Shown: positions 587 through 33,347, counted from the stretch's first letter. The stretch is 33,538 nucleotides of DNA from Candidatus Moraniibacteriota bacterium (GCA_034007405.1 JAVEQZ010000001.1:1-33538), one strand, 5' to 3'. Notes: generated from the letters alone by a model not told the origin. Program-made: numbers and translations.

Positions 587-660
587 TGTGGGCTGGGACG
601 AATGCCTGCCGGTAGGCAGGGATTTGAACCGCCGTAGACCGAAGCCCTTTACGTCTACAG
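587..660 (-). pseudogene. tRNA-Tyr-derived 3' fragment interrupted by a 20-nt GC-rich hairpin insertion
   Basis: Positions 587-600 and 621-644 match the 3' acceptor, T-arm and variable-arm part of the adjacent tRNA-Tyr (679-716) with one mismatch. They are split by aatgcctgccggtaggcagg (601-620). No D-arm, anticodon arm or 5' acceptor is present. Confidence 0.6.
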
Positions 661-6705: not shown

Positions 6706-7956
6706 CTATTTTAACTTCTCACTAATTCTCAACATTCGATTGTATTTGCAAATTCTCTCCCCCCGAGAAAGAGAGCCGGTTTTGATAAAATCAGCTTCGG
6801 CTCCGATCGCCAAATCGGCGATAAAATCATCGGTAGTTTCTCCGCTTCGATGAGAAACGATAGTTTTCATATTATTTTCCTTGGCCAATTTCATACAATC
6901 GATTGTTTCGCTCAAAGAACCGATTTGATTAACTTTTATCAAAACACTGTTACAAGCTTTTTCCGCGATAGCTTTTTGCAACCTCTTTACATTGGTAACC
7001 AAAAGATCGTCCCCGATAGTCATCACTTGAGAACCGATTTTTTCGTTCATCATCCTCCAACCTTCCCAATCTTCTTCCGCCAAACCGTCTTCTATTGATA
7101 TTACATTGTATTTTTCAATCCAGTCTTTATAAAGATTAACCATATTTTCCTTGTTTAATTTTTCATTTTCCGGCTTCAAGAAATAGTGATCCTCTTCCAA
7201 AAAAGAATTGGCGGCCACATCCAAACCGATAAAAACATCTTTTCCCGCCTCATATCCGGCTTCTGCAATAGCTTGATTGATCACCTCCAAAGCTTGGGAA
7301 TTGCTTTCCAAATGAGGAGCGAATCCGCCCTCGTCTCCGACCGCGGTACTCTGATTCATGGAAGTTAATATTTTTTTCAAAGCATAAAATATTTCACTGC
7401 CTGCTCGTAACTGCTCCGGATAAGTTGAAATTCCCTGAGGAATCAATTTGAATTCTTGAATGCTTAGACCGGAATCGGAATGCTCTCCGCCGTTTAAAAT
7501 ATTAAACATCGGAATTGTTTTGAAACTTTCCGCTTTAAACCCATAAGTATCGGCGATGTAAAGATAAAGTTCTTTGCCTTGTTCTTTGGCTGTGGCTCGA
7601 CAAACAGCCAAAGAAACTCCCAAAATCGCATTGGCGCCCAAACCGGTTTTATTTTCCGTTCCGTCCAAGTCCAACATTTTTTTATCAATCTTTCGCTGAT
7701 CCGAAGACTCCTCGTCAATCAAAATCGGAGCGATTTTTTCATTAACATTGGCCACCGCCTGCAAAACACCCTTGCCCTCATAGCGACTCTTATCTCCGTC
7801 TCTTAATTCCAAGGCCTCCTGAGAACCGGTAGAAGCTCCGCTGGGAACCCCCGCTACCCCCTCAGCTCCGCTTTCCAAAACCACTTCCACTTCGACTGTC
7901 GGATTACCTCTTGAATCAAGAATTTCTCGGGCAAATACTTTTTTTATTTTTGACAT
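6706..7956 (-). CDS. eno: Enolase
   Basis: 416 aa. MSKIKKVFAREILDSRGNPTVEVEV is the canonical N-terminus, and SHRSGETTD and KTGSLSRGERICKYN motifs are present. Confidence 0.95.
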   Translation of the reverse strand: MSKIKKVFAREILDSRGNPTVEVEVVLESGAEGVAGVPSGASTGSQEALELRDGDKSRYEGKGVLQAVANVNEKIAPILIDEESSDQRKIDKKMLDLDGTENKTGLGANAILGVSLAVCRATAKEQGKELYLYIADTYGFKAESFKTIPMFNILNGGEHSDSGLSIQEFKLIPQGISTYPEQLRAGSEIFYALKKILTSMNQSTAVGDEGGFAPHLESNSQALEVINQAIAEAGYEAGKDVFIGLDVAANSFLEEDHYFLKPENEKLNKENMVNLYKDWIEKYNVISIEDGLAEEDWEGWRMMNEKIGSQVMTIGDDLLVTNVKRLQKAIAEKACNSVLIKVNQIGSLSETIDCMKLAKENNMKTIVSHRSGETTDDFIADLAIGAEADFIKTGSLSRGERICKYNRMLRISEKLK

Positions 7957-7980: not shown

Positions 7981-8141
7981 TTAAATTAAGCGGTATCAAA
8001 CAAAGCCTACTTCAACGCTTTAGCATTGAATTTATTTCCCGAAAAAGAATTCTTTTTTTGTAGCTGCCATAAGAAATGAATGGCCGGAAAAAAAGAAACT
8101 TCATAGGGAAATAAATGGTCTATTCTCTACCGGTTCAATCC
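7981..8141 (-). repeat. Copy 1 of a ~160-nt dispersed intergenic repeat (structured-RNA or MITE-like), 25 nt upstream of the eno ATG
   Basis: It aligns by eye over its whole length with 11782-11942 and 33065-33222. Internal complementary blocks are 7991-7995/8128-8132, 8030-8040/8106-8116 and 8050-8059/8088-8097. The strand is assigned from the neighbouring gene and is uncertain. Confidence 0.7.
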
Positions 8142-8182
8142 TTTTTAAATTATACTCTTTTTTAAAATCAATCACAAGCATC

Positions 8183-8218
8183 AAAAAAACCATCCGCCTC
8201 GGGCGGATGGTTTGTTTT
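8183..8218. terminator. Bidirectional intrinsic terminator downstream of the KH-domain gene
   Basis: A 9-bp GC-rich stem ccatccgcc-tcg-ggcggatgg (8190-8210), flanked by aaaaaaa and tttgtttt. Confidence 0.7.
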
Positions 8219-8235: not shown

Positions 8236-8574
8236 TTACATTTTTTCAATCTCTCCCACTACATCGTCAATACTTTTCTTCTCCGGAGCAACAGAGGCTT
8301 GATTTCTCATAGCTCTTTCCGATCCTTCCGGTTCATTGATTTTTAGATTCACGCGAGCGTTATTTTTTGCTCCGATAACTCTTAGCAAAGTTCTTAGCGC
8401 TTTAGCTGTTTGTCCTTCGCGGCCGATGACTATTCCCATATCTTTTGGATCAACATCCAAAGTGATAAGAACACCCATTTCATCCACCTTTCTTTCTACT
8501 TTTACTGCACTTGGATTGTCAACAAGCATTTTGACCACCTGCTCGATAAATCCTGCGTCGATTGTTTCTGACAT
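8236..8574 (-). CDS. KH-domain RNA-binding protein (YlqC/KhpA family) with a C-terminal extension
   Basis: 112 aa. LVDNPSAVKVERKVDEMGVLITLDVDPKDMGIVIGREGQTAKALRTLL carries the GxxG KH core. Confidence 0.8.
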   Translation of the reverse strand: MSETIDAGFIEQVVKMLVDNPSAVKVERKVDEMGVLITLDVDPKDMGIVIGREGQTAKALRTLLRVIGAKNNARVNLKINEPEGSERAMRNQASVAPEKKSIDDVVGEIEKM

Positions 8575-11272: not shown

Positions 11273-11719
11273 TTACTTTTCCTCTTTGATTTCGATTATT
11301 ATAGCAGTTTTTATATTTTTCAGAAATTCAATTTCCACCTTTTTTTCTCCCAAATCTTTTATCGGAGCGATCAGCTTCACTTGTCCGCTATTCAATTCAA
11401 TCCCCAATTGGGACTTTATTTCTTGGGCGATTTTTGCTCCGTCTACCGAACCGAAAAGTTTTCCCCCTTTGGCTTTGGCAGAAACGGTTATTTTTTTATC
11501 TTTAATTTCTCGAGCCAACTTGGAAAAATTTTCCATCTCCGCTTTTTCCTTGGCCAGCTTGTCTGAATTATTTTTTTCCACTCTTTTTATCACATCGGGA
11601 GTCGCCACTTGCGCCAATTTTCTTGGAAGAAGCATATTTCTCGCATAGCCGTCGGAAACATTGACCACCTCTCCGACCTTGCCAAGTTTTTTTACATTTT
11701 CCAATAAGACAACTTTCAT
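11273..11719 (-). CDS. rplI: 50S ribosomal protein L9
   Basis: 148 aa. MKVVLLENVKKLGKVGEVVNVSDGYARNMLLPRKLA is the canonical L9 N-domain. Confidence 0.92.
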   Translation of the reverse strand: MKVVLLENVKKLGKVGEVVNVSDGYARNMLLPRKLAQVATPDVIKRVEKNNSDKLAKEKAEMENFSKLAREIKDKKITVSAKAKGGKLFGSVDGAKIAQEIKSQLGIELNSGQVKLIAPIKDLGEKKVEIEFLKNIKTAIIIEIKEEK

Positions 11720-11781: not shown

Positions 11782-11942
11782 TTAAATTAAGCGGTATCGA
11801 GTAAAACCCATTTCAATGAAATGACATTGAATTTATTTCCCAAAAAAAGGATTCTTTTTTGTAACTGCCGTATGAAATGAAAGGCCGGAGAAAAAGAAAC
11901 TTTTTTGGAAAATAAATACGCTATTTACCGCCATTTCAATCT
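11782..11942 (-). repeat. Copy 2 of the ~160-nt repeat family, 63 nt upstream of the rplI ATG
   Basis: It is collinear with 7981-8141, and most positions are identical by eye. The outer pairing gcggta/taccgc is preserved, as are the inner A/T-rich pairings. Confidence 0.7.
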
Positions 11943-11990
11943 CTAACCCATTTTATATCAAAAAAATCAGTTTAGCAAGCCAGCCGGAAT

Positions 11991-12037: not shown

Positions 12038-12409
12038 TCAAATCTGTTCTTCTTTCATAAGTTCATTGATCCTGAAAATTATAAAAGTCAAATGATCAGA
12101 ACCAACTTTATCAATTATTGATTGAAACTTTTCCAGTCCTCCAAAAAGACATTCCTTATCTTGAATAAAAAAATCGACTTCTTGCTTTTCAAAAACCTTA
12201 TTGAGGTACGAAATTATTTCGTCCATCATCCTTCTCGTGTGATCATCTTTTGCTCTCTCCTCGACAAAAGAAGGATCGTTAAATTTAATGATGAGCCTCT
12301 TGTGCAAATGGGAAAAAATAGTTCTCTTTTGACTTGCGGTAACAATTTCCTCCGTCGAATAAGCTTCGTAAATTGATCTTATTTTTTCCATTACCGTTTC
12401 CGTTTCCAT
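12038..12409 (-). CDS. Hypothetical protein, no recognisable family
   Basis: 123-aa ORF with a good SD (aaaggagaagaaaATG). Its composition is acidic and helical-looking. It lies between its own leader and terminator. Confidence 0.6.
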   Translation of the reverse strand: METETVMEKIRSIYEAYSTEEIVTASQKRTIFSHLHKRLIIKFNDPSFVEERAKDDHTRRMMDEIISYLNKVFEKQEVDFFIQDKECLFGGLEKFQSIIDKVGSDHLTFIIFRINELMKEEQI

Positions 12410-31956: not shown

Positions 31957-33006
31957 CTATTTTGCATAGCGAAAAGATACATTGCAGGCCCCCTCCACTG
32001 AAACCATGCACGGTCCGACCGGATTGTCCGGATTGCAAAATTTGCCGAACATGGGGCATTTTTGGGGATTTAAAATTCCCCGAATAACCTCTCCGCACTT
32101 GCAACCGGCCGGATCTTTGGATTTGGAAAAATCAACTTTACCCAAAATATCTCGATATTTTATTTTGGCATTAAATCTTTGATATTTGTTTTTGATTTCC
32201 AATCCCGAACCGGGAATTATCCCGAATCCCCGCCACTCCCCATCACTAATTTCAAAGACTTCCTGAATTATCTTCTGAATTTTTTTATTACCCCCCGTCT
32301 TTACCACTCGCGAATATTGATTAAGCACCCTCAAATCGTCATTTTTAATTTGATTGAGCAATAAAAAAATTCCCTCCAGCACATCTTGCATTTCAAAACC
32401 GGTAATTACTTGAGGGATTTTTAATTTTTGATAAGGTATCGAACCGATTATCGCACTCACATGACCCGGATCGATAAAACCGTCAATCTTTATCTTCTCG
32501 CTTCTAAGTAACTCCTCCATAGCCGGCAAAAATATTTTATGTGTCGAATAAACCGAAAAATTATTTTTTGCCAATCTCTCGACTGTTTGAATTGCCCAAG
32601 CGGTCATCGGCGTAGTCGTTTCAAATCCCAAACCGAAAAAAACTACTTCATTGTTCTTTCCCGCCAAATCCAAAACTTCGTCAACAGAATAAACAGCAAA
32701 AACTTGAGCGCCTTTTTCTCGCGCCTGATCCAAGCTACCGAAATATCCCGGCACCCGAAGCATATCCCCATAAGTGGCTACCGGAATTCCCGCCAAAGCC
32801 AAACTCACGATCGCATCGATATCTTTCTGGGCCGTTACGCAGACCGGACACCCCGGTCCGGTTATCAGTTTGACATTTTTGGGTAAAACCTCCCTGATAC
32901 CGTAATGGCTGATTGCCTGAGTATGCGTCCCGCAAACCTCCATCAAATTCACTTCTCGCCCGATTTCTTTAGAAATTTTATTTATTTGAGTTATTATTTT
33001 TTGCAT
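31957..33006 (-). CDS. hypD: Hydrogenase maturation protein HypD
   Basis: 349 aa. CGTHT, GPGCPVCVT, GFETT and PGHVS motifs are present, plus the C-terminal Cys cluster CKCGEV...CPMFGKFCNPDNPVGPCMVSVEGAC. Confidence 0.93.
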   Translation of the reverse strand: MQKIITQINKISKEIGREVNLMEVCGTHTQAISHYGIREVLPKNVKLITGPGCPVCVTAQKDIDAIVSLALAGIPVATYGDMLRVPGYFGSLDQAREKGAQVFAVYSVDEVLDLAGKNNEVVFFGLGFETTTPMTAWAIQTVERLAKNNFSVYSTHKIFLPAMEELLRSEKIKIDGFIDPGHVSAIIGSIPYQKLKIPQVITGFEMQDVLEGIFLLLNQIKNDDLRVLNQYSRVVKTGGNKKIQKIIQEVFEISDGEWRGFGIIPGSGLEIKNKYQRFNAKIKYRDILGKVDFSKSKDPAGCKCGEVIRGILNPQKCPMFGKFCNPDNPVGPCMVSVEGACNVSFRYAK

Positions 33007-33064
33007 AAGACTATGCAGAGAATTAAATATTAAGAATTATGAATTATGAGAAAATCAATTCTTT

Positions 33065-33222
33065 TAATTAATTGGCATCGAATGAAATCTATTTTAACGC
33101 TATAAAATTGAATTTATTTACCGAAAGAATTCCTTTTTGTAATTGCTGTATAAAATGAAAACCCGAAGAAAAAGAAACTTTTTTGGGAGGAGTAAATACG
33201 CTATCTGCTGTCAGTTTAATGT
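33065..33222 (-). repeat. Copy 3 (most diverged) of the ~160-nt repeat family, between hypC and hypD
   Basis: It is collinear with copies 1 and 2. Shared blocks are attgaatttattta, gaattc, aaaaagaaactttttt and taaatacgctat. It lies 59 nt upstream of the hypD ATG. Confidence 0.6.
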
Positions 33223-33347
33223 TGATTATTTTACTTGCATCCCCCAGTTTGTCGTTCCTATTTTAGCGAATTAAAATAAAATCATTGAAAAAGTTTCTGC
33301 ATAAATTAAAACAAAGTACTAATATAACTGCTCAACTAATCAACTCA

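Follow-up and report, generated by a model that had tools for sequence, protein, structure and literature searches.

Background

The Correia elements (CREE/NEMIS) of Neisseria are MITEs of 100-155 bp with inverted-repeat ends, which very often lie immediately upstream of genes and are co-transcribed with them; their hairpin RNA is bound or cut by RNase III, and the expression of neighbouring genes is altered (PMC10969869, PMC2649163, PMC2229807). They have inverted repeats of 26 bp and carry internal promoters and an IHF site (in part PMC10969869). The enterobacterial and Yersinia palindromic repeats and the pneumococcal RUP and BOX elements lie in transcribed intergenic regions and may influence the stability of mRNAs (PMC3184786, PMC3049150). 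The REP2 repeat of Neisseria is found upstream of many unrelated genes in one orientation and has been discussed as a derivative of a 5' regulatory region (PMC3184786).

The window analysed here is the whole stretch of 33,538 nucleotides from Candidatus Moraniibacteriota bacterium. A first-pass annotation of it had described a repeat of about 160 nt with rod-like self-complementarity, present in three copies just upstream of unrelated genes, and had offered a structured leader, a small RNA or a MITE-like mobile repeat as candidates. The last of these is retained and the other two are not: the repeats are very probably a non-autonomous DNA transposon (MITE) of Moranbacteria (Parcubacteria, CPR), with about three quarters of the insertions at the predicted starts of pre-existing promoters. 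The family is new; in kind it is ordinary, and its insertion pattern is unusual and well supported. MITEs are common in bacteria, and what is worth recording here is the CPR host together with the anchoring on the -10 box, with a spread of about 1 nt, and the sense orientation. The literature searched contained no description of MITEs in candidate-phyla-radiation bacteria, and no precedent for a bacterial transposon that lands at transcription starts, anchored on the -10 box and in one orientation; absence there is not proof in either case.

Results

Three copies in the window

Three collinear copies were found by reading, alignment and profile search in the places first proposed, all on the minus strand, which is the sense strand of the neighbouring genes (Table 1). 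The profile search of the window (nhmmer) gave the three copies with E = 1e-45 to 1e-53 and, with the threshold relaxed to E<=10, no fourth one. Aligned together with their flanks, the three have a mean column identity of 80%, and the boundaries of the first-pass annotation lie within about 5 nt of the three cores. Each core is bordered on both sides by AAT on the plus strand, that is, by ATT in the sense of the element. The flanking genes had been named as those of enolase, L9 and HypD, and Pfam supports all three. The two promoters proposed earlier for copies 1 and 2 were recovered by a promoter scan, in both cases 12 nt before the core; the end of the eno -10 box is 9 nt before the duplicated triplet. 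A strong terminator ends the upstream KH-domain gene, so that eno is a transcription unit of its own. The identity of the window copies to their nearest relatives is 79-87%. The three are old relics, and copy 3 is structurally dead.

Table 1. Features of the window around the three copies of the element.
Feature	Position	Strand	Remarks
Copy 1 core, 150 bp	7987..8136	(-)	sense 5' end GAACCGGTAGAG at 8136, 3' end GATACCGCTTA at 7987
Copy 1 target-site duplication, upstream triplet ATT (sense)	8137..8139	(-)	
Copy 1 target-site duplication, downstream triplet ATT (sense)	7984..7986	(-)	
Native eno promoter TTGTGA-17-TATAAT	8149..8177	(-)	promoter scan; -10 box ends 12 nt before core
Intrinsic terminator of upstream KH-domain (KhpA-like) gene	8187..8213	(-)	scan
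KH-domain (KhpA-like) gene upstream of copy 1	8236-8574	(-)	Pfam
eno (enolase)	6706..7956	(-)	Pfam; start codon 27 nt past copy 1 downstream duplication
Copy 2 core, 150 bp	11788..11937	(-)	
Copy 2 target-site duplication, upstream triplet ATT (sense)	11938..11940	(-)	
Copy 2 target-site duplication, downstream triplet ATT (sense)	11785..11787	(-)	
Promoter TTGCTA-17-TAAAAT before copy 2	11950..11978	(-)	-10 box ends 12 nt before core
rplI (L9)	11273..11719	(-)	Pfam; start codon 65 nt past copy 2 downstream duplication
Copy 3 core, 149 bp, decayed	33069..33217	(-)	
Copy 3 target-site duplication, upstream triplet ATT (sense)	33218..33220	(-)	
Copy 3 target-site duplication, downstream triplet ATT (sense)	33066..33068	(-)	
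-10-like TAAAAT in the hypC-hypD spacer	33228..33233	(-)	10 nt before copy 3 core; no clear -35 box
hypD	31957..33006	(-)	Pfam; start codon 59 nt past copy 3 downstream duplication
hypC, upstream of copy 3	end at ~33348	(-)	

Two other features of the window were recorded. The gene upstream of copy 2 (12038-12409, minus strand) encodes 123 amino acids and has no Pfam match. It is hypervariable among strains that are otherwise 95-99.8% identical, with 40% of its alignment columns varying and a length of 118 or 123 amino acids depending on the strain; the proportion of varying columns is 4.0% for dprA and 1.1-1.3% for rplI and pyrG. The other feature is a second copy of the 3' part of tRNA-Tyr at 597-650 (minus strand), just downstream of the tRNA-Tyr gene itself (680-763). 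Positions 615-644 are 93% identical to 687-716, about 20 extra bases interrupt the copy, which is not called by ARAGORN or by Rfam; an integration or a duplication may have left it there as a tRNA fragment.

Spread of the family

Two invariant blocks were joined into a gapped pattern, with which the JGI metagenomes and a set of genomes, one for each species, were scanned; matches were confirmed with the profile. The 49 confirmed matches represent 32 distinct sites and come from two Parcubacteria/Moraniibacteriota MAGs, one short contig binned elsewhere and 24 metagenome contigs (loci are given below by L numbers). All attributable sites belong to Moranbacteria/Parcubacteria, the relatives of the enolase identify the organism as one of the Moranbacteria, and several of the loci are the window's own organism sampled elsewhere. 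Diverged copies were recovered by running nhmmer with its filters off. The analysed set comprises 27 sites from perhaps ten related genomes, with gene calls made by a simple ORF heuristic.

The density of the family reaches one copy per 2-5 kb on some contigs. Triples on the same strand occur within 4-6 kb at L028:291-6120, L026:2412-6414 and L035:379-5184, against only three copies in the 33.5 kb of the window. Short-read contigs were seen to terminate inside the element (L056:1-58, L024:3158-3282), which suggests that the repeat fragments assemblies and that copy numbers in MAGs are underestimated.

Ends of the element and target-site duplications

The core is 149-151 bp long, with a range of 143-152 bp across copies. 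Three loci of a single MAG (L006, L017 and L020) have identical 149-bp cores in unrelated flanks, and the ends of the element are thereby fixed, from GAACTGGTAGCG... to ...GATACCGCTTA. The terminal inverted repeats are imperfect (GAACTGGTAGCGAGTA against TAAGCGGTATCGAGTA, with about 11 of 16 positions matching), and the outer helix is 78.5% paired. There is no conserved ORF; the ATG found in copy 1 is AAA in the other copies.

Direct repeats of 3 bp flank the core perfectly in 16 of the 27 copies, where 3.5 are expected from mismatched pairings (0 of 20000 permutations). The duplicated triplets vary and include ATT, TAT, AGA, GAT, AAA, AAT, GAA, TTT and TAA. They match only in the exact register, and the match is lost when either side is slid by one to three bases. 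The flanking triplets are a 3-bp target-site duplication. A 10-nt direct repeat around copy 1, ATAATTTAAA, was considered as a long duplication and rejected; it is out of register and is not found in the other copies, and only 3 bp are supported.

Placement at promoters

Hexamers on the sense strand with at least 5/6 matches to TATAAT end 10-12 nt before the core in 17 of the 27 copies, against a background of about 0.3 per position, and no such peak was found on the antisense strand or downstream of the element in these copies. For the 20 sites that have both a -10 box and a downstream gene, the distance from the box to the duplicated triplet is 8.0 +/- 1.0 nt with a range of 6-9, and from the triplet to the start codon the median distance is 32 nt, with a standard deviation of 65. 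Extended -10 boxes (TGn) are present at 10 of the 20, and a TTG signal at -39/-38 is at the right distance for a -35 box. With an interval of 6-9 nt from -10 box to triplet, the insertion coincides with the predicted transcription start or misses it by a few bases. Judged from these promoter-like sequences, the element is at about three quarters of independent sites located 6-9 bp past a pre-existing sigma-70-type -10 box and oriented with the gene. The 5'-UTR position first suggested is supported by this, the element being between promoter and gene where transcript starts are predicted from the -10 boxes.

The promoters themselves are outside the duplication, are wholly different between identical copies and are present at empty sites. 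No target motif at a fixed position was found except A/T at the third duplicated base. The genes downstream of the copies are unrelated: eno, rplI and hypD in the window, and elsewhere a glycosyltransferase, a putative prfB and uncharacterised proteins. Promoter placement is seen in seven of the nine youngest copies, which is as often as in old ones, and no copy is inside a long ORF, save one that clips a 3' end.

Between co-directional genes, as called by the ORF heuristic, 22 copies are in sense and one in antisense orientation. Random orientation had been named beforehand as the sign of a pure MITE, and this ratio departs from it; target-site duplications, which had been named as pointing away from a structured leader, were found, with a length of 3 bp. 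With duplications present and orientation non-random, the element is a MITE whose placement departs from chance.

Empty sites and strain comparisons

Three clean comparisons of filled and empty sites were obtained, one at eno (the window against L046 and L048) and two between L028 and L014. In L046 and L048, with enolases 82-84% identical, the empty eno site reads GAGTATAATTAAAAAAGATT^TTTAATC, and the filled site in the window reads GAGTATAATTTAAAAAGGATT, the 150 bp of the element, and ATTTAATAA. The promoter stretch AAAAAAGAGTATAAT is kept in both of these element-free loci, and L050 has the -10 box TAGTATAAT there. Because empty sites retain them, the promoters are native, and the element entered directly behind the -10 box. 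The synteny of L014 and L028 gave, besides the two clean empty sites, an insertion at an operon junction and an insertion upstream of a -35 box. Since such exceptions are tolerated, tolerance alone cannot explain the concentration of the element at promoters.

The junction copy (L014:2807-2956, compared with L028:4645-4860) is positioned exactly between two operon genes, filled in L014 and empty in L028. In the empty form, GGCAAAATAAAATG, stop and start are one base apart, and the insertion in L014 altered the last codons of the upstream gene of 258 amino acids. The gene downstream resembles release factor 2 (prfB), as read from a CTTTGA frameshift site.

Copy 2 was present in all eight strains or samples examined, and no empty site was found there. 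Its proportion of variable sites in these eight is 4.7%, against 1.1% for rplI and 1.3% for pyrG, and copy 2 thus evolves at roughly the neutral rate. No clean empty site was found for copy 3, L058 being too diverged and the L056 contig ending inside the element. At L057:1-88, which is 96.8% identical to the window over the next 4 kb, hypC and hypD are only about 21-39 nt apart, and both the element and the spacer of about 340 nt (window 33007-33347) are missing. The divergence between L057 and the window reaches into the last hypC and the first hypD codons, so that the segment looks replaced by another allele rather than cleanly excised.

One element-free leader, L050:520-545, is orthologous to the site of the copy at L022:4074-4222 and contains a perfect palindrome, GCTTAATTTAAGC, which resembles the 3' end of the element plus its flank (CCGCTTAATTTAA). 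The palindrome could be due to chance, or be a footprint or a preferred target.

A second insert with the same ends

An insert of 221 bp at L048:2686-2906 (identical in L049) starts with GAACTGGTAGCGAATAAG, ends with AAAGCACTTA and has an ATA duplication. It shares its first 16 and last 6 bases with the family in the window; the interior is unrelated, is richer in GC and has several local hairpins (z = -4.66). A TTGCTA-N17-TAAGAT promoter ends 12 nt upstream of it, and the ATG of a lipase-like gene of 1028 amino acids follows after 19 nt. This insert, a single case of a second family with shared ends, probably represents a second MITE family moved by the same enzyme.

RNA structure

The nested pairings described for copy 1 are present and belong to a long irregular hairpin. 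The fold of copy 1 has -50.5 kcal/mol on the minus strand (z = -5.45) and -36 kcal/mol on the plus strand (z = -2.07). The minus-strand fold of copy 2 is moderate (z = -3.4), and the sense strand of copy 3, also the minus strand, has no fold (z = +1.25).

The outermost pairing, described as kept in all three copies with different sequence, had been taken as a hint of selection on structure. This could not be upheld: the G-U pairs of copy 3 form on the plus strand only, which is antisense to hypD, and with regard to RNA structure in general covariation is not supported on robust measures, there is no strand asymmetry, and there are diverged copies without a fold. Covariation was tested on the full hairpin of copy 1 with 500 shuffles. 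The number of pairs changed on both sides was 16, compared with 14.1 in the shuffles (115/500), and that of further pair types was 57, compared with 57.1 (301/500). The number of cells changed on both sides, a measure inflated by relatedness, was 47 against 30.7 and exceeded all shuffles (0/500), which leaves room for some structural or terminal-repeat constraint. The RNAalifold consensus of the 24 distinct copies contains central stems only, with an energy of about 0.

Compared with mononucleotide shuffles, the mean z of the copies is -2.76 for the sense and -2.78 for the antisense strand; the sense strand is the more stable in 15 of 24 copies (p = 0.09). About seven of the 24, which are diverged and include copy 3 of the window, have z near 0. 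An excess of G-U (162) over A-C (68) on the structure derived from copy 1 was considered as a sense-strand signal and set aside because that structure came from a fold of the sense strand; no asymmetry appears when the two strands are compared without this bias. The earlier statement that the repeat belongs to no named RNA family agrees with Rfam, which at the gathering threshold gave only tRNAs and in a permissive scan nothing near threshold. The interior of the element is a long imperfect palindrome, and a rod can therefore be drawn for either strand; the rod-like complementarity comes from this palindromic build and not from a selected RNA fold.

Search for a transposase

No transposase was found by Pfam among the 19 proteins of the window. 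A search with the terminal repeats over all loci for an autonomous partner gave only the L048 insert, the all-against-all protein comparison gave no multi-copy protein in the fetched loci, and two scans of viral contigs for an autonomous partner gave chance matches only. In L035 a gene of 271 amino acids lies between a full copy and a 3' half copy; its N-terminal sequence has no obvious transposase features.

Discussion

Proposed mechanism

A transposase acting in trans would cut the target with a 3-bp stagger, which would give rise to the 3-bp duplications. Duplications of this length are typical of IS3- and IS30-type DDE enzymes, and the transposase would be of one of these kinds. What the transposition machinery recognises may be the promoter itself, melted or bent DNA at that place, or the RNA polymerase bound to it. 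The element being located at the predicted start and oriented with the gene, the host mRNA should begin with the element hairpin: 3-7 nt would be followed by the 150-nt hairpin and then by the native leader and the ribosome-binding site. By analogy, the likely consequence for the host is a 5'-terminal stem-loop on the mRNA, which could change its stability or be a target of RNase III.

The favoured reading is that position and orientation mainly reflect the target choice of the transposition machinery rather than selection, two causes that fixed insertions alone cannot separate. Targeting is preferred because the anchor is the -10 box and not the start codon, because other positions are demonstrably tolerated, because no terminator by which antisense insertions would do harm was detected on either strand of the element, and because a second cargo that shares the ends is placed in the same way. 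A tentative form of this reading, held with rather less than even confidence, is that the transposition system directs insertion in one orientation to sigma-70 starts, perhaps by way of the open complex or the promoter-bound RNA polymerase and not of the DNA sequence.

Alternative explanations

The placement and the 22:1 sense orientation could also result if an element that arrived by transposition had been domesticated as a structured leader, kept by positive selection for a beneficial 5'-terminal hairpin, one that, for example, protects the mRNA from 5'-end-dependent RNases or brings genes under common RNase III control. The position at predicted starts, the folds of copy 1 and several young copies, which are far better than those of shuffles, the fixation of copy 2 in eight of eight strains or samples and the excess over shuffles of cells changed on both sides would all fit. 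Such a leader is nevertheless unlikely: the robust covariation measures give no support and the consensus has an energy of about 0, folding is as good on the antisense as on the sense strand, and about 7 of 24 copies, including copy 3 of the window, have lost the fold and yet persist. Copy 2, moreover, varies at 4.7% of sites against 1.1-1.3% in the adjacent genes, the genes behind the copies are unrelated in function, eno is driven by the same promoter in close relatives that lack the element, and the L048 insert combines the same ends and placement with a different interior. Somewhat less probable still is an ordinary MITE with a preference for AT-rich DNA only, for which purifying selection in a compact genome has left few harmless places, the stretch from the -10 box to the ribosome-binding site being one of them. 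Insertion spread uniformly over the leader would make the distances to the -10 box and to the start codon exchangeable, whereas the observed standard deviations are 1 nt and 65 nt, and in 19 of 20 sites less of the presumed leader precedes the insertion than follows it. The genomes are indeed compact with short spacers, no fixed target motif exists beyond A/T at the third duplicated base, and long ORFs are free of copies apart from the one that clips a 3' end; but insertions between two operon genes and ahead of a -35 box are tolerated as well, the element, with no terminator detected on either strand, gives no evident reason for antisense insertions to be lethal, and the youngest copies already have the pattern in 7 of 9 cases.

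Independent small-RNA genes with their own promoter and terminator, upstream of genes by chance, are very improbable. Most copies do have a promoter directly upstream, but these are the promoters of the downstream genes, present also in relatives that lack the element; no terminator is found at the 3' end of the element on the sense strand, the median distance to the start codon is 32 nt, and no Rfam match was obtained. The least probable explanation is a single-strand element of the IS200/IS605 or REP/RAYT type, whose orientation bias would follow the replication strand and not transcription. Elements of these types make no target-site duplication and insert beside a fixed tetra- or pentanucleotide, whereas the duplication here is a variable one of 3 bp without a fixed flanking motif and the anchor is a -10 box at 8 +/- 1 nt; what speaks for them is the strong orientation bias and the hairpin-rich ends.

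Implications

If insertion is indeed directed to transcription starts, MITEs would become the 5' ends of host mRNAs, in a bacterial counterpart of Ty3-like integration at start sites, and the system would be a natural tool for tagging promoters, with the L048 insert as a second cargo of the machinery. Should the transposase itself be responsible for the anchoring, a new way of choosing targets would be indicated. Many mRNAs of Moranbacteria would then begin with the same 150-nt hairpin, and their stability could be coupled. In organisms that cannot be grown in culture, the element is also a marker of probable promoters and transcription starts.

Comparison with known elements

The Moranbacteria element is like Correia in that it lies just upstream of genes, should be co-transcribed with them and forms a hairpin of the kind cut by RNase III. 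Unlike Correia, which is found in both orientations, it is almost always in sense orientation and 6-9 bp past a -10 box of the host. Its ends are different, and it has a variable 3-bp duplication where Correia duplicates TA. Correia carries its own promoters, whereas the promoter scan found no internal promoter in the Moranbacteria element.

ERIC/IRU, the similar palindromic repeats, RUP and BOX measure about 100-130 bp and are imperfect palindromes located in transcribed spacers. The Moranbacteria element is likewise an imperfect palindrome in intergenic DNA; it differs from all of them, for which no anchoring at starts is reported, in its ends, its duplication size and its hosts. REP2 has been described as containing the regulatory region, whereas the promoter next to the Moranbacteria element is host DNA outside the triplets and is present at empty sites.

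Targets defined by structure or by transcription are known from other mobile elements. IS1397 and ISKpn1 of the IS3 family insert into the loops of REP/BIME sequences, with duplications of 3-4 bp in the case of IS1397, and the eukaryotic retrotransposon Ty3 integrates within a few bases of the transcription start of RNA polymerase III. With the Moranbacteria element these share an analogy of mechanism only.
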